64,000 nucleotides of DNA from an uncultured delta proteobacterium (lineage in GTDB: Bacteria; Desulfobacterota; RBG-13-43-22). A model generated the notes under the pieces. The model was not told the DNA's origin. It made no database searches and saw only the letters and a list, made by a program, of their open reading frames with translations. Numbering within the stretch: position 1 is the first letter of the stretch; every line of letters starts with the position of its first letter. Of this stretch, positions 14,826 through 30,133 are shown piece after piece. Both the position numbers and the translations under genes were made by a program. The stretch lies in contig CAVUPH010000020.1 in assembly GCA_963743305.1 (NCBI GenBank), forward strand, positions 132,813 to 196,812, given 5' to 3'.

Positions 14826-16141
14826 AGTACCGCCTCCAGGGCTTCGGCGAAACGGCCGATCTCTTCCTTGGTCCGTTTTTCCGTGACGGTTACCAGTAAA
14901 TTATCCGCTTGATCCGGATAATAGCGCCCCAGGGGAAAGCCGGCGGCAAACCCCTTATCGATCAACCGGCTGACCGCCAAGCGGGCATCCAGGGGAAGCC
15001 GGAGGCGAAACTCGTTGAACCAGGGGCCTCGGTCCACCAGCGCCACTCCCGGGATGGCGGTCAAACGGGAACGGGCATAGGCCGCCAGAGCCAGGTTGAG
15101 CCGGGCCAGTTCCACCAGCCCGTTTTTTCCCAACAGACACAAGTGGATCAGAGCGGCCACGGCGCAAAGGGCTTGATTGGTGCAGATGTTGCTGGTGGCC
15201 TTTTCCCGGCGGATGTGCTGTTCCCGGGTTTGGAGGGTCAGGCAATAGCCGGTGCGTCCCTGCCCGTCCTTGGTGCGGCCCACCACCCGTCCGGGCATGG
15301 ACCGGATCAATTCCTGGCGGACGGCCATGATTCCCAGGTAAGGCCCGCCGAAAGAAAGGGGCAATCCCAGGGACTGGCCCTCCCCTACGGCGATGTCCGC
15401 ACCCATCTCCGCCGGCGTCTTACAAAGGCCCAGGGCCACCGGATAGCAGTTGAGGATGGCCAGGGCCCCCAGTTCATGGGCCTTGGAAAAATGAGTGGAA
15501 AAATCATGGAGGCGGCCGAAAAAGTCGGGGTTCTGCAGGATAACGGCGGCGGTGGCCTTATTGATAAAAGATTCGAGTGCGGCCGGATCTTCGAGGTCTT
15601 CTTCCACCAGATCGATCTTCAGGTTGGCGGTATACGATCGGAGCATGACCCGATAGATGGGGTTGACCGAGGTGCAGACCAGCAGTCGCCGCCGTCCGGT
15701 CCGGCGGACGGCGATCATGGCCGCCTCGAACAGGGCTGTCCCCCCGTCATAGAGCGAGGCGTTGGCGGCGTCCAGGCCGGTCAGGCGGCAGACGGCCGTC
15801 TGGTATTCGTAAATCGCCTGCAGGGTCCCCTGGGATATTTCCGCCTGATAGGGGGTATAGACCGTGTAAAATTCGCCGCGGCGGATCAGGGCATCCACGG
15901 CGGCCGGAGTGAAATGGTCGTAAAACCCCGCGCCCAGGAAACCGATCAGGCGATGGGCATTCAGGCCGGCCAGATACCGGAGGTGGTCCGTGACCTCCAA
16001 TTCGCTCAGGGGCTCGGGAAGATCCCAGGTTTTCGCTTGCAGTTCCTCGGGGATGACTGCAAAGAGTTCATCCACGGAATCAAGCCCCAGGACTCCTAGC
16101 ATCCCGGCCCGATCCCTGTCGGTGTGAGGGGTGAAGTCCAA
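14822..16141 (-). CDS. gcvPA: Glycine dehydrogenase subunit 1
   Basis: YTPYQAEISQGTLQ and TREQHIRREKATSNICTNQAL motifs. Confidence 0.96.
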   Translation of the reverse strand: MDFTPHTDRDRAGMLGVLGLDSVDELFAVIPEELQAKTWDLPEPLSELEVTDHLRYLAGLNAHRLIGFLGAGFYDHFTPAAVDALIRRGEFYTVYTPYQAEISQGTLQAIYEYQTAVCRLTGLDAANASLYDGGTALFEAAMIAVRRTGRRRLLVCTSVNPIYRVMLRSYTANLKIDLVEEDLEDPAALESFINKATAAVILQNPDFFGRLHDFSTHFSKAHELGALAILNCYPVALGLCKTPAEMGADIAVGEGQSLGLPLSFGGPYLGIMAVRQELIRSMPGRVVGRTKDGQGRTGYCLTLQTREQHIRREKATSNICTNQALCAVAALIHLCLLGKNGLVELARLNLALAAYARSRLTAIPGVALVDRGPWFNEFRLRLPLDARLAVSRLIDKGFAAGFPLGRYYPDQADNLLVTVTEKRTKEEIGRFAEALEAVL

Positions 16142-16144
16142 GGG

Positions 16145-16540
16145 TCAGACCCCTTTCTCCAGAAAGTCCCGGTAACCCCGGGCGGACATCAGTTCCGCCA
16201 CCTCTTCCGGATTGAATTCCTTGAGCTTGACCAGCCAGCCGCGGCCGTAACAATCCTGGTTGATCCATTCCGGATGCTCTCCCAGGTCTGAGTTAACTTC
16301 CGCCACTTCACCGGAAAGGGGAGCGTAAAAGTCCGCCGCCGTCTTGACGGATTCGATGGTCCCCAATTCTCCCATTCGGTCGACCCGTCGGCCGACTTCC
16401 GGGAGATCCACATAGGTGATATCACCCAACTGCTGTTGGGCGTGGTCCGTTATCCCCACCCAGGCCAGGGCGCCCTCGATTTTCACCCATTCATGCTCGG
16501 AGGTGTAGGTCAATTCTTCCGGAATCAAAATTTGCGTCAT
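16145..16540 (-). CDS. gcvH: Glycine cleavage system H protein
   Basis: HEWV, GITDHAQQQLGDI and IESVKTA (lipoyl Lys) motifs. Confidence 0.96.
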   Translation of the reverse strand: MTQILIPEELTYTSEHEWVKIEGALAWVGITDHAQQQLGDITYVDLPEVGRRVDRMGELGTIESVKTAADFYAPLSGEVAEVNSDLGEHPEWINQDCYGRGWLVKLKEFNPEEVAELMSARGYRDFLEKGV

Positions 16541-16579
16541 ATCGCTTCCTCCCTCTTAAATCCGATCTACCATCAGTAA

Positions 16580-16970
16580 TGACAACCTCGCAAAAAGTCC
16601 AAAAATCTGTCATGGCGAGCGAAGGGAAGCAATCCCCACCATAGTAGCTAGCTGATTCTGGGGGGGATTGCTTCGTCGCTTCACTCCTCGCAATGACAGC
16701 GCTGGGGACTTTTTGCGAACATATCAGTTATGGCGACCTCGCAAAAAGTCCAAAAAACGACTTTCTGCTCGGCGGGGGAGGGGAAGCCCTCCCCCGCCAT
16801 TTGAAGTGAATTCAAATGGTTCCACCCTCACCCCAGCCCGGCGCTTAATCGCGCTCGGGCTGTTGATGGACTTTTTGCAAGTCCATCAGATATGGCGACC
16901 TCGAAAAAAGCCCGTCAGTCACGGTTTGTCATTCTGAGTCCCGCGACAACGCGGGGCTCAGGATGACGGC
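16580..16970. mobile_element. Tandem array of three TIR-bounded MITE-like units
   Basis: Units 16580-16726, 16731-16888 and 16893-~16970; left ends TGRCRACCTCG(C/A)AAAAAGYCC; right ends GGACTTTTTGC..ATCA on the first two units. Confidence 0.75.
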
Positions 16971-17012
16971 AGGCGAAGGGCTCGGGACGACTGGCGCTGG
17001 GCCCAGAATCTT

Positions 17013-18191
17013 CTAATCGGAAAAAGCCCTCAGATATTGGCCCTCCCTTTTCAGAAAGCGGGGAACGATTTCCCCCGGGAGTTCCTTCTCCCGATACTCA
17101 ATGGTTACCCGATCCCCCGGGCGTTGGTTTCGGTCCAGATAGGCCAGGCCGATAGCCCGGATAAAGGTTTCTTCCCCGGGTCGGGACCCGTCGAATTCCC
17201 AGGCGGGGACCATCGTTCCGCTGGTCAATTCCCCCACTATCCGATCGTTAAATCGAACGGTCGATCCCTGCCGAATCATGCCTTTTCCCCGTACCTGCAC
17301 TTTCATAATCCTCCGGGGGACCAGGCTGAACGCCTCTGACCCTAGTTCCGCCGCCTGGGCGGCCAGGGCCTCCCGGCCCGGGAAATCACTCCGCTCCCGG
17401 GTCAGGCTTACGCCGCGCAGCGCCTGGGGTAAAGAAAGTAGAGGCCGCTCCGGGCGGAGTTCCTGCCCGTACAGCGGCAACCCGGCCTCCAGGCGCAGGG
17501 TGTCGCGGGCGCCCAAACCGGCGGGAAGGACACCCAGGGAATCCCCGGTCTTGACCAGGGTATCCCAAAAAGCACCCAAGGCATCGGTTGGAAGCATTAC
17601 TTCGAAGCCGACCGGTTCACCGGTGTAACCGGTTCGGGCGGTCAGCAATTCCAGCTTCCGCCAGCGAGACGTGGCGGTATGGCCGAACCCGGAGGGGGGG
17701 AGCCCTTCCACCCCTGACGCGGCTAGAAGCGCCTCGCTCTTTGGGCCCTGAACGGCCACCATCGACAACTCGGCGGTGACATCTTGAAGTCCCTTCTCGG
17801 ATCCCGCTTGTCGGTTAAGGATTTCCCAGTCCCTTTCCCGGTTGGCCGCGTTGACCACCAGCAGCGTTTTTTCCGGTGTGAATTGATAGAGGTAGGCATC
17901 GTCCAGCGGCCGCCCCTGCTCATCGGAAAACAGGGTGTATTGAGAAAAACCCGGTCGTAGACGGGAAGCGTCGTTGGTCAAGGTCCGGGTAAGGAGGGCC
18001 AACCCCTCCGGCCCTTTGATTAGGAAGCGGCCCAGGTGGCTGATATCGAACAGGGCGCCGAATTTCCGGCAGGCCAGGTGCTCGGCGAGGATGCCGGGAG
18101 GATAGCTGACCGGCAAGCTCCATCCGGCGAATTCGGCCATTCGCCCCTTATGGGCCTCATGCCAGGCATCCAGGGGAGTACGGTGAACCAA
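17013..18191 (-). CDS. gcvT: Aminomethyltransferase (glycine cleavage T protein)
   Basis: EFAGWSLP, LFDISHLG, RTGYTGE and GLGARDTLRLEAGLPLYG motifs. Confidence 0.95.
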   Translation of the reverse strand: MVHRTPLDAWHEAHKGRMAEFAGWSLPVSYPPGILAEHLACRKFGALFDISHLGRFLIKGPEGLALLTRTLTNDASRLRPGFSQYTLFSDEQGRPLDDAYLYQFTPEKTLLVVNAANRERDWEILNRQAGSEKGLQDVTAELSMVAVQGPKSEALLAASGVEGLPPSGFGHTATSRWRKLELLTARTGYTGEPVGFEVMLPTDALGAFWDTLVKTGDSLGVLPAGLGARDTLRLEAGLPLYGQELRPERPLLSLPQALRGVSLTRERSDFPGREALAAQAAELGSEAFSLVPRRIMKVQVRGKGMIRQGSTVRFNDRIVGELTSGTMVPAWEFDGSRPGEETFIRAIGLAYLDRNQRPGDRVTIEYREKELPGEIVPRFLKREGQYLRAFSD

Positions 18192-18218
18192 TAGGACCTC
18201 CCTTCTTGCGGGGAAAGA

Positions 18219-18749
18219 CTATTTGAACTTCGAGATGGCCGCTTTGAGGGCCTTTTCCACCTCTTTCCAGGCGCCCTCGATCCCCGTCTTCAGGTCTTCC
18301 CAGGCCCCTCCCGATGACTGGTGGAGTTCATCCAACTTGGCGCGAGCGTTTTTCTGTTTGACTTGCAGGTCGTCGATCAGTTTGCGGTATTCGTTTTTGG
18401 CCTCAGCGGCCGCCTGTTCCGCTTTAGCCTTCAGCCGGTCAATTTCCGGCTTCCATTCGTCAAATTGGGCCTGTAACCGTTGAATGTAGACTTCCTTTAA
18501 ACCGGGCGGCTCTTTTCCTTCAAAAGGGTTATACCCAGGCTTTTTGTACAAGCGGGCCTCGTTCCCTAGTATGTCCGGGCGATAGACCTTTTCGGCCCAT
18601 TCGGAAGGTTCCACCTCCTCAAAGGCTACCGACACGGTCTTTTCTTCACAAACGGCAATCTCCATGACCTCTCGGGTGACGGCCTCGGCCAGCCGTTTCT
18701 TCTGGTCCTCGGTCCGGCCGGGATGCAGTTTAATGATTACATGTGGCAT
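18219..18749 (-). CDS. PptA-like tautomerase fused to a coiled-coil domain
   Basis: N-terminal PHVIIKL..GRT..QK...LYKKPGY; C-terminal YIQRLQAQFDEW...AWEDLKTG. Confidence 0.75.
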   Translation of the reverse strand: MPHVIIKLHPGRTEDQKKRLAEAVTREVMEIAVCEEKTVSVAFEEVEPSEWAEKVYRPDILGNEARLYKKPGYNPFEGKEPPGLKEVYIQRLQAQFDEWKPEIDRLKAKAEQAAAEAKNEYRKLIDDLQVKQKNARAKLDELHQSSGGAWEDLKTGIEGAWKEVEKALKAAISKFK

Positions 18750-18882: not shown

Positions 18883-19758
18883 CTAGCCAATTTTATAGGC
18901 TATGGTGGTCTTACTGACCCCAGGAATCAACCAACGCCCTTGACTAAACTGGCAGAGCCATTCCCCGGCCCCCCCGAAAAAAAAAGACGAAACCCTTCCC
19001 AGTCTGGAGGACGGCTTTGTCTTTCCAGAAATATAAGTTTTTATATCAATAAATCCAATAGTTGCAAGTTGTTTTTCAATAAAAAGTTTAGAAAAATCGA
19101 AGAGATGATAAGGGGTGTGATAAAGATCCAAGTTCCGGCTGAAAGGACCCAACAGGCGGACAATCGGGGTGGTATGAGGCCAACGAAGCAGCACTACTCC
19201 CCCCGGCCTTAAGAAACGAAAGACTTCCCGGAGCACCATTAGCGGATCCGGAAGATGTTCGATGACATAAAAGAGCGTTACCGCATCATAGCTATTTCCT
19301 GGAATTGAAGGATCAGGCAGGGGTGTGGATCGAATATTTAAGCCCGGGAAATGGCTCTGACAATAATTTCGGCCGGGTGGAGATATTTCGATGCCATCGG
19401 CCTGCCAGCCCCTATTGGCCATATATTGAAGAAAAAATCCATATCCGCTGCCCACGTCTAAAATCCTTCCGGGTTTACTCCGTTTTCCGATAATTTCGGC
19501 CGATTTTCGAATCACCTCCTCCTGGGACCGAGACCAGGACTGTATTTCATCCGGTTTCCCGGGCAGGTAGCTCTGATAAGCGGCGGTCAATTCCCGAGAA
19601 GAGGGCTGGGGGGCAATGAAGACTAAGGGACAGAATCCACACTGATAATAGGACCAGGAAGCCTTTTTCGCCACCAGTCGATCGGATGGAGTTCGGCAAA
19701 TCGGGCAGGGGGGAGGGAATATTTCTTTATTTTTATTATCAAAATCGATAAAATTCAT
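18883..19758 (-). CDS. Class I SAM-dependent methyltransferase with N-terminal Cys cluster
   Basis: CPIC...CGFC; ILDVGSGYG; YVIEHL; LRPGG. Confidence 0.85.
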   Translation of the reverse strand: MNFIDFDNKNKEIFPPPCPICRTPSDRLVAKKASWSYYQCGFCPLVFIAPQPSSRELTAAYQSYLPGKPDEIQSWSRSQEEVIRKSAEIIGKRSKPGRILDVGSGYGFFLQYMANRGWQADGIEISPPGRNYCQSHFPGLNIRSTPLPDPSIPGNSYDAVTLFYVIEHLPDPLMVLREVFRFLRPGGVVLLRWPHTTPIVRLLGPFSRNLDLYHTPYHLFDFSKLFIEKQLATIGFIDIKTYISGKTKPSSRLGRVSSFFFGGAGEWLCQFSQGRWLIPGVSKTTIAYKIG

Positions 19759-19765
19759 ATACTTT

Positions 19766-20090
19766 CGACGCTTCGCCCTTTTTTTGGGCTAGATACCTCC
19801 GCCTATCCGGTCCGACCGACGGGTCTCGGCGAATGGGTTTTCCCAAGGTACTCCGGGCTTCGAATCCGGGCCTAATTTACTAATCTTGTATGAAGCAGGC
19901 CCGAACCCGGAGGCCTTTGACGCCTTTCAGGCCAGCCCTGCCTGTAGACAGATTTGAAAACCCGGGGGCCGGGTTAGACCCTGAAAAGAAATAGGGAAAA
20001 CCCTTCCGCCGAGACCCGTCGGCCACGGAGGCCAGAATTTAGGTTAATCTACCCTGCATTGTGGCCAGCCACCCAAAAGCGCAAACGACC
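19766..20090. mobile_element. Structured ~330-nt dispersed element, copy 1 (left end missing)
   Basis: Homologous to 31821-32149; 29-bp stem 19816-19844/19994-20022. Confidence 0.75.
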
Positions 20091-20160
20091 ATATTTTCTT
20101 GACCGGACCGAGTCAATCCTTTATATCCTAATTCACCTTAGAATGAGAATCAGGTTTTTG

Positions 20161-20904
20161 ATGAAAATATTCTTTTATTATGTCATCTTTCCTCTCTACC
20201 GGCCTTTTTACTTAGTTGCGGTGATTATCGACACCCTGCTGCTCGGCCTTCTGATTATTATTCTTTCACCTTTGGACCCCTCGGGGAATTTTGTCCATTA
20301 TATAGGAAAGTTTTGGTCCAGGCTGAATATTTATCTGGGGTTCTGCCGGGTGAGGGTTCGGGGGAAGGAGTATATAGACCCTGAAAAAGCGTATATCGTC
20401 ATGTCTAATCACCAGAGCTTTTTCGATGTTTGCGCCTTGATCGCCTATCTTCCCCTGCAATTACGCTGGGTGGTCAAAGCTGAAATTCGAAAAATGCCGG
20501 TGTTTGGCTATGCCTTGCAGCGTATGGGCCATATTTATGTCGATCGGGCTCGGGGAGAAAGTATCCGCCTGAGCATCGAAAAGGCGACCCACAGCGTTAA
20601 GGGAAAAACCTCGGTGGCCTTTTTCCCGGAAGGGACGCGCAGCCAGGACGGGAAGCTCTTAAAATTCCGGAAGGGCGGCTTTATCCTGGCCCAGAAATCC
20701 GGTTGTCCGATTTTGCCCATCACCATCAATGGTTCCCGCTTCATGCTGCCGAAAGATACCCTGGATTGGCTGCCCGGTAAAATCGAGATCCGTATTCATC
20801 AGCCCCTTGAGCGTCCCAGCGCCCTGACTTTGGACGATAGCCTGCTGGCGGTGGAGAAGGCGATCCGGGAGGGACTGGATTTGGATTACGGCCGGCGGAG
20901 CTGA
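20161..20904 (+). CDS. PlsC-like lysophospholipid acyltransferase
   Basis: NHQSFFD and FFPEGTRS motifs. Confidence 0.9.
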   Translation: MKIFFYYVIFPLYRPFYLVAVIIDTLLLGLLIIILSPLDPSGNFVHYIGKFWSRLNIYLGFCRVRVRGKEYIDPEKAYIVMSNHQSFFDVCALIAYLPLQLRWVVKAEIRKMPVFGYALQRMGHIYVDRARGESIRLSIEKATHSVKGKTSVAFFPEGTRSQDGKLLKFRKGGFILAQKSGCPILPITINGSRFMLPKDTLDWLPGKIEIRIHQPLERPSALTLDDSLLAVEKAIREGLDLDYGRRS

Positions 20905-20927
20905 AACGTGCTGAAACCTTAAATAAA

Positions 20928-21822
20928 ATGCGATCCCATCCCTTTGACCATTACTTGGCCTATCAAGCCATTATTCAAACGGTGAAACGGATACCGCTGC
21001 CGTTGGCCTATAGTCTGGCCCGGGGCCTGGCCTCCTTTTTCTTCCTTTTGTTACCTGCTGATCGCCGGAATCTAATCGCCAATTTGACGGTGGTTTTTGG
21101 GGGGGACACCGCCAAGGCCCGTAAGACCTGCCTCAAGCTTTTTCAGAACTATGGCCAGTATCTTATTGATTATTTTTTGTTACCGAAACTTTCGTTTGAA
21201 AAGCTGAAAGATTTTTATTCCCCTCAAATTGGAGAGGCTTATTTACACAGCGCCATTCAAAACGGCAGAGGGGCCTTGCTGCTGACCGGCCATTTGGGCA
21301 ACTGGGAAATGGGAGGGGTACTTCTGCGATTCATGAATTACCCCCTGAATATTGTCACCCTTCCCCATAACACGCAACGGGCCAATGACTTGATCAAAGG
21401 CCTGCGACAGGAAAAACAGATCCGGACGATTGAATTGGGAGGGTCTCCACTGGGTCCCCTGAACATTCTGGCGGCTCTTAAAAGAAATGAGGTGGTCGCC
21501 CTGCTGGCGGACAAGGTTTTCTGGGGTAAGTGCGCCGAAGTCGCTTTTTTCGGGCATAGAGTGGCTTTTCCTTTGGGTCCATATTTGCTGGCCCAGGCCA
21601 GCGGGGCCGCCGTGCTTCCGGTTTTCATGCTCCGGAACCCGAATGGCCGCTATCAGGGATTTATAGAACCGCCTCTGACGATTGGAACCGACGCGGAAGA
21701 AACTGACCCTGCGGGGGGCGTTGGGGCAATTCGTCGGTCTTTTTGAACGGTACATCCGGCGTTATCCCGACCAATGGTACAATGCCGATCGGCTTTTCCC
21801 GGAGGCCGAAGGACGTTTCTAA
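20928..21822 (+). CDS. LpxL/PatA-family lipid acyltransferase (frameshift ~21710)
   Basis: HLGNWE, LLAD and FFG motifs; YPDQWY in the shifted frame. Confidence 0.85.
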
Positions 21823-21839
21823 ATTCTGGGGAGGTTGCC

Positions 21840-23141
21840 ATGAGTAGGAAAATTCTAATAATTATGCCCCGCTGGTCGGAAAAAAGCCTCTGGGGCGTCA
21901 TGGGTATAAAGTTTCCCTACTTGTCGTTGACCACCTTAGCCGCCCTGACTCCCCCGGATATTGAGGTCCGGATCATGGACGAGAACGTGGAACCCATTGA
22001 TTTTGATTACCGTCCTGATTTGGTGGGGATCTCTCTGATGACGCCCCTGGCCCTCAGGGGGTACGAAATCGCCGATCAATTTCGCACTCGGGGGGTCCCG
22101 GTAGTGGTGGGAGGGGTACACGCCACGATGTTGCCGGAAGAGGCGGCGGAGCATGCCGATGCCGTGGTTATCGGCGAAGGGGAAATCCTTTGGCCTGAGG
22201 TGCTGGCCGATTTTAGTAAAGGGGATCTTAAGAAATATTACCTGACCGATCGTCGGGCCCCCTTGAATGCTCTTCCCCTGCCGCGCCGGGATTTGCTGAG
22301 GCGGGGGGCCTACCTTTTCCAAAACACCCTGCAGACCACCCGAGGTTGTCCCAATGACTGTGATTTTTGCTCGGTAACCACCTTTTACGGCAACACCTAC
22401 CGTTTTCGACCGGTGGCTGAGGTGCTCAAGGAGATCGGGGCGCTTAAGGGCAACTTGATTTTTTTTGTCGATGACAATATTATCGGAAGCAGAACCTATG
22501 CCCAGGAACTATTTGAAGGGCTTAAACCGTTAAAAAAACGTTGGGTCAGTCAGGCTACTTTGAACATCTCCCGGGAAGAAAAATTGCTGGCCCTGGCCCG
22601 GGACAGTGGCTGTCTGGGATTGTTCGTGGGCTTTGAATCTTTATCCCAGGAGATCTTAAATGGGTTGGGCAAGTCCTTTTACCGGGTGGCGCAGTATGAA
22701 GCGGCTATCCGCCGCCTCCATGATTACGGTATCGGGATACAGGGGTCCTTTATTTTCGGGAATGACAACGACCCGCCGGACATTTTTTCCCGGGTGGTTC
22801 GGTTTTGCAACCGGAACCGGCTGGAGGCCGTGCTTTTTTCATTATTAACGCCCTTCCCGGGCACCCGGATTTTTCACCAATTGCTTAAAGAGAACCGGAT
22901 TCTCCATTTCGATTGGGAAAAATATGATATGAACCATGTGGTCTTTCGGCCCCAAGGGATGGATGCGGAAGCCCTGGAAAAAGGTTTTTTCGAGGCCTAT
23001 AAAAAAGTCTATTCGAGCGCTTCTTTGTTAAAACGATTGTTAAAGCCGGCCAAAAGTCTCTTGCTGTTCGGGCCCATGAACTTATCCATGCGGCAGTCCT
23101 GGAAAAGGATAAGACGCCAGGAAGGGTTGGATCGGACTTGA
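21840..23141 (+). CDS. B12-binding domain radical SAM protein
   Basis: VVGGVHAT, VVIGEGE, RGCPNDCDFC, FVDDN, GFES and TPFPGT motifs. Confidence 0.92.
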   Translation: MSRKILIIMPRWSEKSLWGVMGIKFPYLSLTTLAALTPPDIEVRIMDENVEPIDFDYRPDLVGISLMTPLALRGYEIADQFRTRGVPVVVGGVHATMLPEEAAEHADAVVIGEGEILWPEVLADFSKGDLKKYYLTDRRAPLNALPLPRRDLLRRGAYLFQNTLQTTRGCPNDCDFCSVTTFYGNTYRFRPVAEVLKEIGALKGNLIFFVDDNIIGSRTYAQELFEGLKPLKKRWVSQATLNISREEKLLALARDSGCLGLFVGFESLSQEILNGLGKSFYRVAQYEAAIRRLHDYGIGIQGSFIFGNDNDPPDIFSRVVRFCNRNRLEAVLFSLLTPFPGTRIFHQLLKENRILHFDWEKYDMNHVVFRPQGMDAEALEKGFFEAYKKVYSSASLLKRLLKPAKSLLLFGPMNLSMRQSWKRIRRQEGLDRT

Positions 23142-24193
23142 ACCCCTTTCGTCTCTTTAAAAAAAGAAACCTCTCCTCGAAACTTCATCCGGGGCAGTGC
23201 CTGGGTATTCCCCGGGGGATGATGTTTTACCACTTTTTTCCTCTTTGGAAGACATTTTGGAAAAATTTAGGCTTCCCGGTTTTGGTTTCTCCGGTTTCCA
23301 CTCCCGAAATGGTGGAAGCCGGCCAGGGGTTGACCCGGAGCGACCTCTGTCTGCCGATTAAAACCTATTTAGGCCATGTGCTCTGGTTGCGGGAAAAGGT
23401 GGACGCCCTTTTTCTCCCCCGACTGGTCAGTATCGAAGCCGGGGCCTATCTCTGCCCCAAGATTTTGGGTCTGAACGACGTGATCCGCAACGTGATCCCC
23501 GACCTGCCTCCCATCCTGGGGCCGATGGTCAACTACAAAGGCCCCCGGCGGGTCACCTTGGAAGAATCCTTTCTCTCTTTGTCGGCGGATCTGGGGTTGC
23601 CGGTTCGACGAATCAAGGAAGCCTATGCGGGGGCCTTTGAATTTTGGCAGAGGCATCAGAAAGAAGTGGGCGAGGCGCAGGGAATTCCCCGGGATCTCCT
23701 TCCGGAGGATCTGAGGGGAGATCTGGTTCGGTCCCCGGCGGAAGTCCCCAGGTTTCGACTGGGCGTGATCGGCCGGCCGTATCTGCTTTTTGATCCGGTA
23801 CTCAGCCACCGATTGATAAAAAGATTGGTCTCCTATTCCTGCGGGATAACTTTTTATGAGGGAATCCCGGCGGCCGAGCGGGAGGCCCAGGCCGGACACT
23901 TGTCCAAGCCGGTGTACTGGAGTCTGGGCCGGGAGCTGGTGGCGGCCTCATTATCCTTCAGCCGCTGGGAAAGGATCGACGGGTTGATCAACGTTTCTTC
24001 TTTTGCCTGCGGCCAGGACGCCTTTACTTCTTATCTCATCGATCATTATGCCCGCCTGGGTTCCGATAAGCCGGTCTTATCCCTGGTCCTGGACGAGCAT
24101 ACCTCCGCCGTGGGCCTCCAGACAAGGCTGGAAGCTTTTTTCGATCTATTGGAAAACCGCGCCCGGAAAGGGGAGGAGGTCTCCTGCATCTGA
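23138..24193 (+). CDS. DUF2229 / acyl-CoA dehydratase activase-related protein (PlsA reductase-domain-like)
   Basis: GIPRG, CLPIK..GHV, CPK, SFACGQD and DEHT..GLQTRLEAF motifs. Confidence 0.8.
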   Translation: MNPFRLFKKRNLSSKLHPGQCLGIPRGMMFYHFFPLWKTFWKNLGFPVLVSPVSTPEMVEAGQGLTRSDLCLPIKTYLGHVLWLREKVDALFLPRLVSIEAGAYLCPKILGLNDVIRNVIPDLPPILGPMVNYKGPRRVTLEESFLSLSADLGLPVRRIKEAYAGAFEFWQRHQKEVGEAQGIPRDLLPEDLRGDLVRSPAEVPRFRLGVIGRPYLLFDPVLSHRLIKRLVSYSCGITFYEGIPAAEREAQAGHLSKPVYWSLGRELVAASLSFSRWERIDGLINVSSFACGQDAFTSYLIDHYARLGSDKPVLSLVLDEHTSAVGLQTRLEAFFDLLENRARKGEEVSCI

Positions 24194-25275
24194 GCATTCC
24201 CCATATGGGGCTCCTTTATGTGGGTTATGCCAAAGTTCTGGAAAGTTACGGAGTGCAACTGATCGTTCCGCCCCGGCCCAATCAGGAGGCATTGCAACTG
24301 GGGACCAAGTATTCTCCGGAATGCGCCTGTCTGCCCTTTAAGCAAAACCTGGGGAATATGATCCAGGCCCTGGAACGAGGGGCCACCGATATCCTCATGC
24401 CCGGGGGTTTCGGCCCCTGCCGCTTCGGCTATTACGCGGTAATCCAGGAAATGATCCTGCGCCAGTTGGGATTTTCCTTTCGCATGGCCCGGGCCGACGA
24501 CCCGGACAGCCTGCAGGACATGGTAGCCACGATTAAAGCCATCAGCGGTATCCGGTCCAAGCGGGAAGCCTACCGGATGTTTTTTTTCATCCTGGAGAAG
24601 TTGGCCGCTCTCGATCATGCGCAGAAGAAATATCTGGAGATCAAACCCCTGGAAGAGGTCCGCGGGGCCGCCGATCGGGTTTTGGAAGAATCCGTTCAAC
24701 AGATTGACGGCTGTCTGACCTATCCCCAACTCTTGGCCGCCTGGTTAAGAATCCGACGTCGATTTGCCGCTATCCCTCGGAAACGGAGGAAATTACTGAA
24801 GGTCGGTTTGGTGGGGGAGATCTTCATGCTCCTGGACCCTTTCAGCAACATGAACATCGAGGAAAAATTATCCGGGATGGGGGTTCGGCTTTCCAAGTCG
24901 GTCTGGCTCAGCGACTGGTTGAATGACCGCTTCCGCTTCCGGCCCTTTCGCCGCAATCAGTTTCAACTGGCCTGGAAAAGGGCGCTCGATTATATGGAGT
25001 TTCCGGCCGGGGGGGAGAGCATCAAATCCGTGGGCAAGACCCTGCAGTATGCCCGGCGGGGGTATGACGGGATCATCCATCTCATGCCCTTTACCTGCAT
25101 GCCGGAACTGGTGGCCCAGACCGTTATCGCCCGCATCAGCCGGGATTACCGCCTACCGGTTTTGACCCTGATCTACGATGAACACACCTCTTCCACCGGA
25201 CTCCAGACCCGGCTGGAGGCCTTCATCGATCTTCTCTTCCAAAAGCGCCACGGTCGGAACCCCGTCGGGGCTTAG
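24184..25275 (+). CDS. 2-hydroxyacyl-CoA dehydratase-like 'CoA protein activase' (PlsR-like)
   Basis: PHMG, PECACLPFK, GPCRFGYY, VGEIF, PFTCMPE and DEHT..TRLEAF; start either CTG 24184 or ATG 24205. Confidence 0.8.
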   Translation: MHLSIPHMGLLYVGYAKVLESYGVQLIVPPRPNQEALQLGTKYSPECACLPFKQNLGNMIQALERGATDILMPGGFGPCRFGYYAVIQEMILRQLGFSFRMARADDPDSLQDMVATIKAISGIRSKREAYRMFFFILEKLAALDHAQKKYLEIKPLEEVRGAADRVLEESVQQIDGCLTYPQLLAAWLRIRRRFAAIPRKRRKLLKVGLVGEIFMLLDPFSNMNIEEKLSGMGVRLSKSVWLSDWLNDRFRFRPFRRNQFQLAWKRALDYMEFPAGGESIKSVGKTLQYARRGYDGIIHLMPFTCMPELVAQTVIARISRDYRLPVLTLIYDEHTSSTGLQTRLEAFIDLLFQKRHGRNPVGA

Positions 25276-25370
25276 AAACCTCCGTCTTCAGCCACCGCCA
25301 GGAAGTGAGCGGTTATTCTCCGGAACGGTTCCGCAGTGAACCATGGCCCGATCTCCAGCCCAACCCACCC

Positions 25371-25826
25371 TCAACCCTTTTTAGGCGGGGTCTGGATAAT
25401 CAGTACCGGTCGCGAGGTCAGCTTCAGAACCCTTTCGGTGACTGAACCGAATACCAATCGCTTCAAACCGGTTTGTCCTTGGGTGGCGATGACAATCAGG
25501 TCGACCGCTTTCTTGTCCGCCAGATCCACGATCTGGAGGGCCGCTTGCCCGGTGAGGGTCAAAGGGCGGACTTTGACTTTGGCGGGAACAACCTTGGCGA
25601 CCAGTTCCTTCAGTTGCCTCTTGGAACCGCTTTCCGCCTCGTCCAGGTATTGCCGGAGGTAGTTCAGCGGGAAGGTGTCCGCCGCCGAGATCGTCGGGAT
25701 GGGCTCCACTACGTTAACCACCAGTAATTCCGAAGAATAATCCAAAGCCATATCGGCGGCCACCTTCAGGGCTCTTGCCGCCGGGGCGCTGAAATCCGTG
25801 GGGCAAAGGATTTTTTTGAATTTCAT
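25371..25826 (-). CDS. Universal stress protein
   Basis: KKILCPTDFS; DLIVIATQG...FGSVTERV. Confidence 0.92.
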   Translation of the reverse strand: MKFKKILCPTDFSAPAARALKVAADMALDYSSELLVVNVVEPIPTISAADTFPLNYLRQYLDEAESGSKRQLKELVAKVVPAKVKVRPLTLTGQAALQIVDLADKKAVDLIVIATQGQTGLKRLVFGSVTERVLKLTSRPVLIIQTPPKKG

Positions 25827-25932
25827 GAGTTTCTCCCTTCCTTTTAAAAAGATTTAAAAGAGCGTTTTTTATGTTAGATTCTAAATAAATTATAGCATAC
25901 TGACCCGGTACGTCAAAATAAAGGAGGGAAAA

Positions 25933-26250
25933 ATGAAAAAGATCAATTTGTATCAGGCCAATGATTTTGGAGAACTGTCCTTGAAACGGCTGCTGGTCCA
26001 CGAGTCTCCGTATTTCAAAATCCTGAATTTTAATTTCAAGGCCGGCCAGTTTTTGCCGGTCCATGCCCACGATATCGAGGGGCAGGTCTGTCTGGTCGTC
26101 CTGGAGGGGTCTGGAAAATTCTTAGGCAAAGACAACACGGAGATGGCGGCGGAAAAGGGGGACGTGCTGATCTGCGATATCAGCGAGCCCCATGGTCTGG
26201 CGGCCGATACGGACTTGCGGTTGCTGGTCACCATCGCCCCCCCCATTTGA
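25933..26250 (+). CDS. Cupin domain protein
   Basis: PVHAH...VLEGSG...EPHG. Confidence 0.85.
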   Translation: MKKINLYQANDFGELSLKRLLVHESPYFKILNFNFKAGQFLPVHAHDIEGQVCLVVLEGSGKFLGKDNTEMAAEKGDVLICDISEPHGLAADTDLRLLVTIAPPI

Positions 26251-26324
26251 TGAGCCGTATTTATTAGATTAGATTCTTGCTTCCATTGTTAGAGACAATT
26301 TTCCAGAACAATGGAGGCAAGAAT

Positions 26325-26669
26325 CTAATTGCAGGCCCCTTCGTAGTTCGACGAAAGCTGATCGTTGGTCAGTTGCCAACAACCGCCCACTTTTTCGAAT
26401 TTCAGGGTGACCTGGGCCTTGATGCATTGATTATAGCCGGTTCCGCAATTCCAGATGCAGGTCCTGGCCCGATGGTCACCGGAACTAAAGTCAATGATGT
26501 TGCTGGTATCCAGGCAGACCAGGTTTTCGCAGTCGAAACTATAGCGGACTATTTTTTCGCTATTTTTGGAGTCATGGCTGCCTCCGGTCGAACTGGTGGA
26601 ACAACCGTAAAGGAAAACCAGACAGATTAAGGCCGCGGTTAAACTGCACCATTTTAAGCGAACGGACAC
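26325..26669 (-). CDS. Hypothetical Cys-rich lipoprotein
   Basis: Signal peptide with lipobox LYGC; 7 further Cys; AAGGAG RBS. Confidence 0.6.
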   Translation of the reverse strand: MSVRLKWCSLTAALICLVFLYGCSTSSTGGSHDSKNSEKIVRYSFDCENLVCLDTSNIIDFSSGDHRARTCIWNCGTGYNQCIKAQVTLKFEKVGGCWQLTNDQLSSNYEGACN

Positions 26670-26912: not shown

Positions 26913-27005
26913 AAATAAACAGATTGCCGGTCAAGGATTATGTCCGGATGGCTGTTTCGGACATGGGAATCCGGGAAAAGACCAGGGCGGGAAAGGAGAA
27001 AAGGA

Positions 27006-27566
27006 ATGGTAGTAAATGCGCAGAGTATCGGCCAGACCCTGATGAACGTTTTTAGGCCCGATCAGGCTCAAGGTCTGCAGGCCGGGGAGACACCGGGAGG
27101 GAGTGAGGGGATCCCGGCGGGTAAAACCGGGAGTTCCTTTCAGGACATTTTTCAATTGATCGACGCCAATACGGATCTCAAACTGGGGACGGACGAATTA
27201 ACCATTATGTCCCATCTGTTTACGGAAGGGATGGTCTTGACGAAAGATGTGGATGGCGATGGGGCCTTGAGCGCTGAAGAAGCGGGCGTCCCGGCCAACC
27301 TGGTGACCGATGTGGATACCAACGGAGATAATCTAATTGACGGCAGGGAATTGGGTTCCCTGACCGATGATCTGCTGGGGGGCATTATCCAGGTCTTGGA
27401 TAAAGATCAGGATAAGGCTTTGAGCGTCAAGGAACTGGCCGCGCTGTTCTTTCTTTTCGGCTCCCCGAATGCTACCCCGCCGGTCGAACCGGTGGAAGGT
27501 GAGGGGGAAGGCGCCGTGGAAGGGGTGGAGCAGACCGCTGAACGTCAACCCTTAAGGAAAGTATAG
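27006..27566 (+). CDS. EF-hand domain protein
   Basis: Four loops: DANTDLKL, DVDGDGALSAEE, DTNGDNLIDGRE, DKDQDKALSVKE. Confidence 0.8.
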   Translation: MVVNAQSIGQTLMNVFRPDQAQGLQAGETPGGSEGIPAGKTGSSFQDIFQLIDANTDLKLGTDELTIMSHLFTEGMVLTKDVDGDGALSAEEAGVPANLVTDVDTNGDNLIDGRELGSLTDDLLGGIIQVLDKDQDKALSVKELAALFFLFGSPNATPPVEPVEGEGEGAVEGVEQTAERQPLRKV

Positions 27567-27662: not shown

Positions 27663-30133
27663 TTATAACTTAACCACCGGGATCAGTCGGGCCTGTTGAT
27701 CCGAAAGGAGAAAAATACTTTTTAACAGCCATTCCGGCCGGGCTTCGGGGCCCGGCCCGTCGGCTAAAATCCAGTGAATTTCAGTTTGGTTGTCAGCCAA
27801 AGGGGTCAGCCGGATTTCTTTAATCAGCGGCCTCAGGTCGATGATCCCTTCCCTTTTGCCGGAGCGTTGAATCGGCCAGGATTCGGCTGCCAGAAAAAGC
27901 TGCCAGGAACCTTCCTGTAAATTCCCGGTGTCTATCCGGGCTTGGTAGGACCGTCGTTCTTCTTTAGGAAAAGGAAGATTCAGCGCTACTTCCCGGACTT
28001 CGACCAGGTCGGTTCCGGGAAAAAAATTCCCGACCAGGCGCCGCTCCACTTCTTTGATTCCCATCGATCCCTGACACTGCACATCCACCCACTCCCCCAT
28101 GCTGCTCAATCCCACCGGCAGTGCCGGTCCAAAGGAGATTTTGGGCAGGGGGTGGAAGCCCTGAGAAAAAACCAGGGGCAGGCCGGCCCGTCTAAAGGCA
28201 CGGATCAAGGCCTCCTTCCATTCCAGGTGGCCCAAAAGACGGGCCGGTCCGGTTTTGGAAAGGCGGAGACGGAATTTCTTAATGTCCGGCGGGGCGGACG
28301 CCGCCGGTCCATTTAATTTCGGGGGAGTGAAATGATCGAAAACAATGGGTTTCACCTTGCGGTCCGGGCAAACCCCGCATTGCCGGCAGTCTCCCTGGCG
28401 GCAGTCCGGGGTTAGGTCTCCGCTTAACCCGCGCTGATATTCCTCCCAGAGAACCCTTCGCTGCACACCGGTTTCGATGAAGTCCCAGGGGAAAATAGTT
28501 TCCTGACTGTGGACACCAAATAAAGATCGAACATCGTAGCCGGTTTCTTCCAAGGCCTGCTCCCAGGCCGGCCAGTTAAAATAATCACCCCAGGCATCCA
28601 AGCGGGCGCCGTTTCGATAGGCCCGCTCGATCGTCCGTCCCAGGCGTCGATCCCCGCGGGAACACAATCCCTCCAAAAGGCTTTGACGGGGATCGTTCCA
28701 TCTCACCTGGATGGTTTTGCCCCGCAGGGCCTTCTGGATAAAGGCGATCCGTTTCCGGCTCTCTTCCCGGTCAATTGGGCCGCCCATTGAAAAGGAGTGT
28801 GCGGTTTGGGGATAAAGGTGGAAATCCCCAGGTTGATTTGCGGACGGGGAGTGACGGTTCGGGCGGCTTTCTGAATTTTTTTTACCAGGTCGACCAGGCC
28901 CTGAAGGTCCTCCTGAGTCTCGGTGGGCAGGCCGATCATAAAATAAAGCTTCAATACCCGCCAGCCGGCCTTGAACACCGCTTGAACCGTATTCAGGATG
29001 TCGGGTTCGCTGATATTCTTGTTGATCACGTCCCGCAACCGCTGGGTCCCGGCTTCGGGGGCCAGGGTGAAGCCGGTTTTTCGAACCCGCGAGATTTGGT
29101 CGATCATTTTGGGGCTCAAGGTGTCCACCCGCAGGGAGGGAAGGGAAAAGGCCACCCGTTCAGGTTCCCAGCGCTCCATCAGGGCCGGGAGGAGTTGATC
29201 CAGGCAGCCGTAGTCGCCGCTGCTTAAGGAGAGGAGTGTGGCTTCATCATACCCGCTTCGGGATAAGCCCTTTTCAAAAAGCTGCCAGACTTTTTCCGGC
29301 GACCGTTCCCGTACCGGCCGATAGATGATCCCGGCCTGACAGAAGCGGCAGCCCCGGGTGCAGCCCCGGGTGATCTCGACGCTCAAACGGTCGTGAATGA
29401 CACGGTGGTAGGGCAGGGGGCTGACTTCCGGGTAACCCACCTGATTGATATCGGCCACCAGACGTTTGCGGATTCGATTTTCGGCTTGCGGCGGATGATC
29501 CGGCTCCAGGGCCTGGACCGCCGGAGCATAGACCCCCTCCAGTCCGGCCAGGGCCTGAAGGATTTCCGGTCGTCCGGATCCGCCGGCCTTCCAGGATAAC
29601 CAGGTGTCACAGATTTCTTCGATGACCTCCTCTCCGTCGCCAATGACCAGCAGGTCAAAAAAATCAGCCAGTGGTTCGGGATTAAAAACGCAAGGTCCTC
29701 CGGCGATCACCAGCGGATGTTCAACGGTCCGATCCCGGGACCTGAGCGGGAGGCCGCCTAAGGCCAGCATCTGCAGGACATTGGTATAGCCCAGTTCATA
29801 GGGGAGGCTGAAACCGATCAGGTCAAAATCCTTCAAGGGGGTGCCTGATTCCAGGGAGCTCAGGGGCAGGGAGCGCTCCTCCAAAATCCGGGAAAGATCA
29901 GGCGCCGGGGCAAAAAAACGCTCCGCCCAAACCTCCGGGCGGGTGTTGAGGAGATGGTAGAGGATTTTAATCCCCAAGTGCGACATGCCCACTTCATACA
30001 AGTCGGGAAAGGCCAGGGCAAAACGCAACCGGACATTTTTAAGATCCTTGTGAGCCGAGAAAAGCTCCTGTCCCAAGTAGCGGCTGGGTTTTTGGACCTC
30101 CGGGAGAAGGTCCGCCAGCGAACAGGGATCCAT
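27663..30133 (-). CDS. TIGR03960-type radical SAM protein fused to TIGR03936-type radical SAM-linked domain (frameshift ~28790)
   Basis: FPDLYEVGMSHLG, RGCTRGCRFC and PKPHTPFQW; C-terminal FSQGFHPLPKISFGPALPVG. Confidence 0.88.

Follow-up and report, generated by a model that had tools for sequence, protein, structure and literature searches.

A conserved operon of an uncultured Desulfobacterota bacterium pointing to an undescribed anaerobic way of remodelling membrane lipids

How non-plasmalogen ether lipids, diethers and branched tetraethers are made by anaerobic bacteria is understood only in part. The described systems closest to the locus analysed here are PlsA/PlsR of Clostridium perfringens, fused PlsAR and Ger (Thermotoga maritima Tmari_0479; Desulfatibacillum alkenivorans SHJ90043). 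In the BBD architecture, reportedly described by Sahonero-Canavesi in 2022, two N-terminal BcrAD_BadFG (PF01869) domains are joined to DUF2229 in one polypeptide. This architecture has been used to define Ger/PlsA, with the action of Ger reported as confined to the sn-1 position (PMC13159169), the reduction halves have been named Red1 and Red2 (PMC12838417), and producers are searched for with full-length fused Ger/PlsA homologues (PMC11868695; a 2026 sponge preprint). We analysed a window of 64 kb (G000:C20:132813-196812; positions below refer to this whole stretch) from a 4.9-Mb, 43-contig metagenome-assembled genome (MAG) of an uncultured delta proteobacterium that is 90% complete. It contains a row of genes for a PlsC-type acyltransferase, an LpxL/PatA-type acyltransferase, a cobalamin-binding radical S-adenosylmethionine (SAM) enzyme (B12 rSAM) and two DUF2229-type proteins without ATPase domain, D1 and D2, next to a divergent gene for a SAM methyltransferase (MT). 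This conserved operon points to an undescribed anaerobic way of remodelling membrane lipids. In the accessible text of PMC13159169, PMC11868695, PMC12838417, PMC9702350, PMC13459092 and the sponge preprint only ATPase-bearing fused or PlsA/PlsR forms appear. We found no description in the literature of an ATPase-less DUF2229 pair, of its stand-alone activase or of a linkage with B12 rSAM lipid clusters; supplements that list Ger architectures may hold shorter ones.

The genome encodes a fused protein of its own on contig C10 (L009:5099-9307, minus strand; 1402 aa, two BcrAD_BadFG domains, DUF2229 and HGD-D). Residues 673-986 of this protein are collinear with D1 (28% identity, E 4e-29) and residues 1019-1398 with D2 (28% identity, E 2e-37). 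This match bears out the proposal of the first-pass annotation, which had been made from the DNA alone, that the last two genes of the operon are equivalent to the reductive portion of enzymes of PlsA/PlsR/Ger type, and D1-D2 keeps the Red1-Red2 order of DUF2229 and HGD-D-like halves. The C-terminal tail DEHTS..GLQTRLEAF, which it had seen in both proteins, is real as well (BLASTP of D1 against D2: 45% identity over 73 residues, E 3e-13), and so are the conserved Cys: C71, C106 and C291 of D1 are invariant in 24 sequences and C42, C72 and C298 of D2 in 15. Each subunit probably holds a [4Fe-4S] cluster bound by its three Cys. PlsAR and Ger have DUF2229-type halves in the same order, the C-terminal (D-E-H)...TRLEAF motif and three conserved Cys per half, and they share with D1-D2 the dependence on a BcrAD_BadFG-type ATPase, the occurrence in anaerobes and lipid-related neighbours (PMC13159169, PMC12838417). 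Unlike them, D1-D2 is embedded among genes for a B12 rSAM, acyltransferases and an MT and coexists with a fused copy. Neither D1 nor D2 has a PF01869 domain, so that the two-ATPase BBD architecture is absent, and a single-domain activase would have to serve them in trans.

DUF2229 (PF09989) is matched strongly by D1 (1.4e-40) and over the N-terminal 60 aa by D2 (2.1e-9), whereas HGD-D scores of 17.7 bits for D1 and 21.9 bits for D2 stay below the cut-off of 28.4. 'HgdD-like' is thus not tenable as a simple label for the fifth protein, which can still be called the second half of a DUF2229-type reductase. A dehydratase of amino acid fermentation was rejected in view of the HGD-D scores below cut-off, the strong DUF2229 match and the lack of fermentation genes nearby; by these domain matches the two proteins do not resemble such dehydratases, a grouping with which had been named in advance as a refutation. 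AlphaFold2 models (predicted local distance difference test, pLDDT, 90 for D1 and 79.8 for D2) were compared with solved structures by Foldseek, which placed 2-hydroxyisocaproyl-CoA dehydratase (HadB/C), double-cubane cluster protein (DCCP) and the class I benzoyl-CoA reductase subunits MbdON and BzdNO on top for D1 (E 8e-8 to 7e-5) and HadB/C on top for D2. Over both models E values ranged from 8e-8 to 1e-4 and TM-scores from 0.43 to 0.61 at 10-16% identity and a probability of 1.00, the top PDB entries being 3o3m/3o3n/3o3o, 7yyl/6eno, 9g87/9gai and 8s02. At the sequence level neither D1 nor D2 had a meaningful match in the PDB (E 0.6). D1 and D2 are therefore predicted from their models to share the fold of the catalytic subunits of the 2-hydroxyacyl-CoA dehydratase/benzoyl-CoA reductase (HAD/BCR) superfamily.

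A complex model of D1 with D2 reached an interface score of 0.79, compared with 0.50 for the best control, and passed a mark that 58 of 80 solved complexes and 2 of 110 mismatched pairs reach, although this pass may reflect likeness to solved complexes such as HadBC and BzdNO and is not proof. Contact agreement between runs was at least 92% and partner pLDDT at least 83, and the Cys-bearing segments lay within the interface. Of 7149 candidate proteins with a length of 195-623 aa, 3857 matched at E<=1e-10, which makes this a large family. For its gene neighbourhoods we took the best 80 of 496 confirmed stretches of D2 relatives in species genomes, called and clustered the open reading frames (ORFs) and named the families by Pfam. 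Most of these 80 loci have D1 and D2 side by side, and in 19 loci they form one ORF of ~740 aa without ATPase. A heterodimer of homologous subunits is predicted. Such a heterodimer, the predicted fold, a separate ASKHA-type ATPase activator and Cys triads at the predicted interface would be common to D1-D2 and HgdAB/HadBC (activator HgdC/HadI), BzdNO/MbdON and the double-cubane proteins; the identity of 10-16%, the HGD-D scores below cut-off and the lipid genes in place of an amino-acid-fermentation or aromatic-degradation context set D1-D2 apart.

The same genes had also been taken for a split copy of PlsA/PlsR/Ger, and this part of the first-pass annotation did not hold. Maximum-likelihood trees (IQ-TREE, quick mode) were built for D2/Red2 with 85 rows, left from 112 after removal of near-copies, and for D1/Red1 with 82 of 106. 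All fused forms (18 and 16 rows) stand opposite all ATPase-less forms, with support in the Shimodaira-Hasegawa-like approximate likelihood ratio test (SH-aLRT) of 100 and 99; three fused rows lie on very long branches. D1 and D2 of the window cluster with D1-D2 fusions of Syntrophobacterales and Desulfobacterales, and the ATPase-less D1/D2 form a separate, deep and ancient lineage that does not group with the fused forms. A search for shorter proteins with the Red2 region of the fused protein returned mostly contig-end fragments and unnamed MAG proteins. We then compared columns conserved to at least 95% in the ATPase-less set, counting a column as shared if at least 80% of the fused domains have the same residue. 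D1 shares 22 of 27 such columns with fused Red1, among them the three Cys, K75, H80, Y215, D219, W261 and D319-E320-H321. D2 shares 26 of 43 with fused Red2 and differs in 17, four of which are charged: E39, K46, E301 and E326 (of the DEH motif) correspond to G, I, G and G in fused Red2. D2 thus keeps a DEH motif and charged residues that fused Red2 does not, which suggests a different or additional active site.

These data bear on whether D1/D2 could be a redundant, disassembled isozyme of Ger/PlsAR that carries out the same sn-1 ester-to-ether reaction and whose position in an operon is meaningless. Domain order and Cys ligands are the same, most conserved D1 columns are common to Red1, and another split is known with PlsA/PlsR of C. 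perfringens (PMC12838417). However, the fused form of ~1400 aa is kept by all 8 of 41 relatives that have the split form, a finding at odds with plain redundancy. A deep split separates the clades, D2 has conserved charged residues of its own, and the recurrent tight linkage to rSAM, MT and acyltransferase genes is not seen around the fused gene of the genome. We regard such an isozyme as very unlikely. The fused form is the only one in a genus with 14 sampled genomes, and the Desulfovirgula and Natroniella genomes have split forms only. In our genome, the fused gene is preceded by a gene for a radical SAM protein of 306 aa with a MarR-like C-terminal domain (L009:9334-10254, minus strand) and followed by RNase G, and the pair of 306-aa protein and fused protein might itself be a lipid module.

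A dedicated ASKHA-type activase of the HgdC/BcrAD class is a trait of the HAD/BCR superfamily, and to judge from sequence this trait extends to D1/D2. None of the 8 PF01869 matches of the genome lies on contig C20, so the window encodes no activase ATPase. A single-domain BcrAD_BadFG ATPase of 326 aa is present in 55 of the 80 loci, usually adjoining D2 (Pfam 2e-49; TIGR00241 201.8 bits, cut-off 125.4), although it is missing from the four loci of window type L028-L031. The genome has an orthologue of this activase (64-67% identity) among housekeeping genes at G000:C33:42548-43501. Both queries were searched in 41 relatives, with an orthologue defined by at least 55% identity and an ORF of 319-344 aa: the stand-alone activase occurred in 7 of 8 genomes with a split D2 and in 1 of 33 without (G004, 76% complete). 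In the other relatives the best match was the second ATPase domain of the fused protein, and in G031 one copy of the activase lies directly upstream of D1-D2. D1/D2 of the window would hence need an activase encoded elsewhere, for which the C33 orthologue is the candidate. This activase is closer to the ATPase domains of the fused protein (48-51% identity) than to the other activases of the genome (30-41%), and the whole three-part system is thus a paralogue of the fused system rather than a fragment of it.

The gene order MT, divergent from PlsC-rSAM-D1-D2, is kept in all six operons of this type from three genera of the family, i.e. the window, L028, L029, L030, L031 (G007) and L023 (G005); the flanks differ in G005. 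This order is the conserved core of the operon, to which the LpxL-type gene is a variable addition. As the first-pass annotation had anticipated, other genomes thus also combine D1/D2 with genes for radical SAM enzymes and lipid acyltransferases, and this co-occurrence extends in reshuffled form to other phyla. At least two lipid-family genes (counting B12 rSAM, MT, LpxL-type acyltransferase, PlsC, SRPBCC, MMPL, LolA, ketosynthase, FabD-like transacylase and amine oxidase) accompany D1/D2 in 45 of the 80 loci: 31 of 36 of Desulfobacterota type, 11 of 21 from Nitrospirota, the single one from NC10 and none of 12 from Bacillota. Syntrophobacterales show the order LpxL-type acyltransferase, B12 rSAM, SRPBCC, MT, PEGA, D1D2, activase, MMPL. 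Two tandem D pairs are followed by LpxL-type acyltransferase, SRPBCC, B12 rSAM, MMPL and amine oxidase in Syntrophaceae/Syntrophorhabdus. In Nitrospirota, D1, D2 and the activase precede LolA, two ketosynthases and B12 rSAMs, and NC10 is similar. This variety of gene orders across phyla is a stronger argument than the counts. The gene set is more than chance, recurring in relatives and, reshuffled, in other phyla. Homologues of MMPL, LolA or SRPBCC were not found when the whole genome was searched by tblastn with the families of the wider neighbourhood (E 1e-15), so the genome carries a reduced version of it.

Several observations concern the tandem pairs and other neighbours in these loci. 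The tandem pairs are arranged in mirror order D2'-D1'-D1-D2 in L056, L065, L066, L068, L070, L071, L078 and L094; upstream of such pairs of Syntrophaceae/Syntrophorhabdus type lie the genes for a SPASM radical SAM protein and the activase, and the second pair clusters with the Bacillota-type clade in the D2 tree. Genes for a SPASM radical SAM protein, a small conserved ORF and an ATP-grasp protein flank D1D2 clusters in Syntrophobacterales, and our genome has them together at G000:C36:47095-50515 (65% identity for the SPASM protein and 49% for the ATP-grasp protein). This set looks like an unrelated module of the type that makes ribosomally synthesised and post-translationally modified peptides and a mere neighbour of the lipid cluster elsewhere.

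The adjacency could also be incidental, with D1/D2 acting on a non-lipid substrate by reduction of a small molecule or an aromatic compound, as DCCP and benzoyl-CoA reductases do. Both of these are among the top fold matches, and D1/D2 have non-lipid contexts in Bacillota, Nitrospiria and Coatesbacteria. The tight junctions (4-nt overlap TTGA of rSAM and D1, 11-bp gap between D1 and D2) and the recurrence of the same families in different orders in at least three phyla argue against a chance arrangement, and no aromatic-degradation genes occur in the window. Double-cubane clusters have six Cys, compared with the three invariant Cys of each subunit here. We consider this alternative very unlikely and the least probable of all. 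The D1-D2-activase triad of Bacillota occupies a conserved site with the sigF and spoVAC-spoVAD-spoVAE operons ahead of it and lysA behind it; that of Nitrospiria lies upstream of amidase, RNase PH and Ham1. The Bacillota triad (L093, L096, L098, L101, L102 and L104-L107; Pelotomaculum, Desulfotomaculum, Desulfovirgula, Natroniella) is also found 5' of genes for a CBS/poly(A)-polymerase-like protein and a trpS/tyrS-type tRNA synthetase.

The cobalamin-binding radical SAM enzyme was identified correctly from the start. It matches Radical_SAM (PF04055, 2.4e-14), B12-binding (PF02310, 2e-11), DUF4070 (2.4e-5) and Radical_SAM_N2, and its translation contains CPNDCDFC as CxxxCxxC motif. The N-terminal B12-binding domain and this core place it in class B (cobalamin-dependent) as far as can be judged from sequence. 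Both features as well as the DUF4070 tail and the lipid-gene context are common to enzymes of HpnP/HpnR/HpnJ/BchE type. Membership in the HpnP, HpnR, HpnJ, BchE or TIGR04072 families is not supported, as the curated cut-offs of NCBIfam are far above the scores of the enzyme (bits/cut-off: HpnJ 93.1/577.6, BchE 87.3/481, HpnR 80.4/650, TIGR04072 75.5/360) and that of HpnP is likewise not reached. None of nine homologues from related loci reached a curated family cut-off either, and in the ESM Atlas the matches were confined to generic 'B12-binding radical SAM' clusters. Gmm, Grs and Tes/Mss are further radical SAM enzymes that act on lipids. In 37 of the 80 loci a homologue with 44-60% identity is found no more than 10 kb from D1/D2, and matches at E<=1e-60 occur in 87 of 201 genomes of the phylum, often as several paralogues. 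The best matches (50-55% identity) stand beside ketosynthase, amine oxidase, MMPL and LpxL-type genes. A second lipid-like cluster of the genome, at G000:C22:29980-40499, consists of genes for a ketosynthase, a B12 rSAM (40-42% identical to that of the window), a FabD-like transacylase and another ketosynthase.

Ketosynthase, amine oxidase and B12 rSAM genes of deltaproteobacteria have been described as 'ladderane-like' clusters of unknown function (Rattray et al. 2009, PMC2649909), and such clusters were found to be expressed, again with unknown function, in several phyla (PMC9902471). Loci related to the window resemble these and the antiSMASH 'ladderane' type in paired FabF-like ketosynthases, a phytoene-desaturase-like amine oxidase and a B12 rSAM near D1/D2, the genes that characterise such clusters (PMC2649909); the window operon has neither ketosynthase nor amine oxidase genes. 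'Activase' and 'hydroxyglutaryl' do not occur in the accessible main text of PMC2649909, which puts the link to D1/D2 and the activase outside that description. The first-pass annotation had not known the combination to be described, which is true for the split family in the literature we found, while part of the wider neighbourhood coincides with the 'ladderane-like' clusters (PMC2649909).

These clusters are the basis of the main rival explanation. D1/D2 and the activase could be a dehydratase or reductase acting on acyl-CoA or on chains bound to acyl carrier protein (ACP) in a specialised 'ladderane-like' fatty acid pathway, for example by removing a hydroxyl group or reducing an enoyl or conjugated system through ketyl chemistry, and the acyltransferases would then join the unusual chain to a lipid anchor. 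Those relatives that are characterised and have solved structures (HadBC, BzdNO, MbdON) all act on CoA thioesters. For Nitrospirota, NC10 and many Desulfobacterota, a distance of at most 10 kb separates D1/D2 from paired ketosynthases, a FabD-like transacylase, an amine oxidase and a B12 rSAM, and the nearest homologues of the rSAM of the window stand beside such fatty acid genes. 'Ladderane-like' clusters have been proposed to make unusual polyunsaturated chains (PMC2649909) and have an unknown function in non-anammox phyla (PMC9902471). Yet there is no ketosynthase, ACP or FabD gene in the window operon or the rest of its neighbourhood, the tblastn search left the genome without the MMPL, LolA and SRPBCC genes of such loci, and the triad stands alone, without fatty acid genes, in 12 of 12 Bacillota loci. 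In addition, the strongest sequence relatives of D1/D2 are the PlsAR/Ger-type reductase domains, which act on glycerolipid esters (PMC13159169). Overall, we consider a thioester substrate unlikely.

The explanation that accounts best for the whole, and which we hold with moderate confidence, is a lipid-remodelling operon whose trans-activated D1/D2 act on a lipid carbonyl. In general terms, that this is a lipid operon which includes a HAD/BCR-type enzyme activated in trans is highly probable. Gene content, homology, conserved Cys, predicted fold, synteny, the phyletic link to the activase and the separate clade have been shown here; substrate, chemistry and product of D1/D2 are inferred as follows. 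The D1/D2 heterodimer would form the catalytic portion of a radical enzyme that is driven by ATP and belongs to the HAD/BCR superfamily. An activase dimer, reduced by ferredoxin or flavodoxin, would hydrolyse ATP and inject a low-potential electron into D1/D2, which by analogy would pass it to a lipid ester carbonyl and form a ketyl radical. This step could end in the conversion of the ester to an alkyl or alk-1-enyl (vinyl) ether or in a related reduction or elimination. The acyltransferases might supply or re-acylate the lipid backbone, and the B12 rSAM and the MT might modify chain or head group by methylation or by C-C bond formation at an unactivated carbon. Ester-to-ether chemistry on a glycerolipid is a tentative element of this scheme, possible rather than probable.

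Substrate or position probably differ from those of the fused enzyme in the same genome, as favoured by the coexistence of both enzymes and the diverged D2. A substrate common to all cells, namely membrane lipids, is favoured by triads that stand alone outside lipid contexts. The split-only Desulfovirgula and Natroniella likewise fit an enzyme that acts on ordinary membrane lipids, as PlsAR/Ger do (PMC13159169). Going further, D1/D2 and the activase could be a second, hitherto unrecognised anaerobic ether-lipid machinery for ether bonds that Ger/PlsAR does not form, for instance the sn-2 ether in the dialkyl glycerol diethers that sulfate reducers contain, while rSAM and MT would build methyl-branched or bridged ether lipids (building blocks of the type of branched glycerol dialkyl glycerol tetraethers, brGDGT) in Desulfobacterota, Nitrospirota and NC10. 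We offer this extension as speculation that is rather improbable in its entirety. If it were true, it would provide an anaerobic genetic marker for palaeoclimate biomarkers and a function for part of the 'ladderane-like' clusters.

A number of points weigh against a lipid ester as substrate or against the operon as a functional unit. The link to lipids is contextual and limited to certain lineages: in Bacillota (12 of 12 loci) and Nitrospiria no lipid genes are found near D1/D2. The loci are related and their counts not independent. The position of the closest rSAM homologues beside ketosynthases and amine oxidases suits a pathway on ACP-bound chains. The fused rows of our trees are uncharacterised proteins that were recognised by architecture, stem mostly from one phylum and include no characterised PlsA, PlsR or Ger, and the branch between fused and ATPase-less forms in the D2 tree amounts to 3.88 changes per column. 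With its departure from Red2 at 17 of 43 columns, D2 may follow a chemistry that differs from that of PlsAR/Ger. A stand-alone activase was not found in G005 (89% complete) despite its D1/D2. Finally, the transcript structure is tentative given few terminator-like sites (7, compared with 14.2 in shuffled sequence) and weak promoter matches; promoter-like sites number 15, compared with 6.4 in shuffles, and those in the intergenic region are all weak (sigma-70-like).

The ATPase-less family is invisible to screens for the fused form, and it occurs within lipid-gene clusters in three phyla. If it makes or alters ether lipids, the census of possible producers in soils, sediments and anoxic waters would change, and non-anammox 'ladderane-like' clusters would gain a testable function. 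This can be put to a direct test in two cultured carriers that have the split form only, Desulfovirgula thermocuniculi DSM 16036 and Natroniella sulfidigena AHT3.

The features of the locus are listed in Table 1. Five genes on the plus strand and one divergent gene lie between a minus-strand block at 13275-18749, which holds a glycine-cleavage operon and a tautomerase gene, and downstream housekeeping genes. ORF calls, Pfam matches and junction spacing confirmed the co-orientation, tight spacing and families of the five genes as they had first been described.

Table 1. Features of the operon and its divergent partner in the window
Feature	Position	Strand	Basis
Class-I SAM methyltransferase (MT), 291 aa, N-terminal Cys-rich stretch	18883..19758	-	Methyltransf_23 1.1e-20
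Divergent intergenic region, ~400 bp, presumed promoters of MT and operon (inferred)	19759..20160		Weak sigma-70-like matches
PlsC-type 1-acyl-glycerol-3-phosphate acyltransferase family, 247 aa	20161..20904	+	PF01553 3.2e-29; TIGR00530
LpxL/PatA-family (lysophospholipid/lipid A-type) acyltransferase, 272 aa	20928..21746	+	PF03279 2.1e-33
Cobalamin-binding class B radical SAM enzyme (rSAM), DUF4070 C-terminal domain, 433 aa	21840..23141	+	Pfam
D1, putative first subunit of ATPase-less DUF2229/HAD-BCR-type radical enzyme, 351 aa, corresponding to Red1	23138..24193	+	DUF2229 1.4e-40
D2, putative second subunit, 356 aa, corresponding to Red2/PlsR	24205..25275	+	Collinear with fused protein; DUF2229 2.1e-9

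The PlsC and LpxL-type genes are separated by 23 bp. The PlsC gene starts with ATG 20161 in an ORF that is open from TTG 20059. The rSAM ORF is open from 21774; its start is most likely ATG 21840 behind the Shine-Dalgarno site GGGGAGG, which leaves a gap of 93 bp behind the LpxL-type gene. The only strong Shine-Dalgarno-like run before D2, GGGGAGGAGG (24170-24179), is 25 nt 5' of ATG 24205 and 10 nt 5' of an in-frame CTG at 24190, and D2 homologues start ~7 residues earlier. This spacing and the starts of the homologues suggest that D2 may begin with a non-canonical codon overlapping the end of D1. Between positions 18000 and 28000 no Rfam family, neither a cobalamin riboswitch nor another RNA, reached its gathering score.

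The PlsC protein is one of two PF01553 proteins of the genome and 64-96% identical to its counterparts in L028-L031 and L023. TIGR00530 (112.2 bits, cut-off 102.95) and the motifs NHQSFFD (HX4D) and FPEGTRS in its translation assign it to the PlsC family by sequence. The LpxL-type acyltransferase carries HLGNWE (HX4E) and remained below the cut-off of all 15 NCBIfam models, the best being a phosphatidylinositol mannoside (PIM) acyltransferase with 96.1 bits compared with 209. Its gene is present in two of the six operons, the window and L028, and is missing between PlsC and rSAM in L029, L030, L031 and L023. Of the two acyltransferases initially counted as members of the operon, PlsC is thus constant (six of six) and the LpxL-type one is not, and the locus is a conserved lipid-remodelling operon of an anaerobic Desulfobacterota MAG with an LpxL-type gene inserted in this strain. 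Genes of the LpxL-type family occur in 20 of the 80 loci, and the genome has a second, stronger PF03279 gene on contig G000:C37 (1.2e-52). The MT reaches no NCBIfam cut-off. Its orthologues (57-90% identity) lie divergent beside PlsC in all five other operons (L028-L031, L023), in line with the early suggestion that it is a partner of the operon, and genes of its family adjoin D1/D2 in 21 of the 80 loci.

Further downstream on the minus strand (27663-30133), a DUF2344 protein (374 aa) and a Radical_SAM_N2/Radical_SAM protein (476 aa) are encoded by two ORFs that overlap and differ in frame. In the near-identical relatives L028 and L029 one ORF of 823 aa takes the place of this pair, which indicates a frameshift or an assembly error in the MAG of the window. 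On the 3' side of D2, small ORFs without Pfam match (25336-26630, 26940-27566) are followed by an EF-hand protein of 208 aa, and this order is kept in L028-L031.

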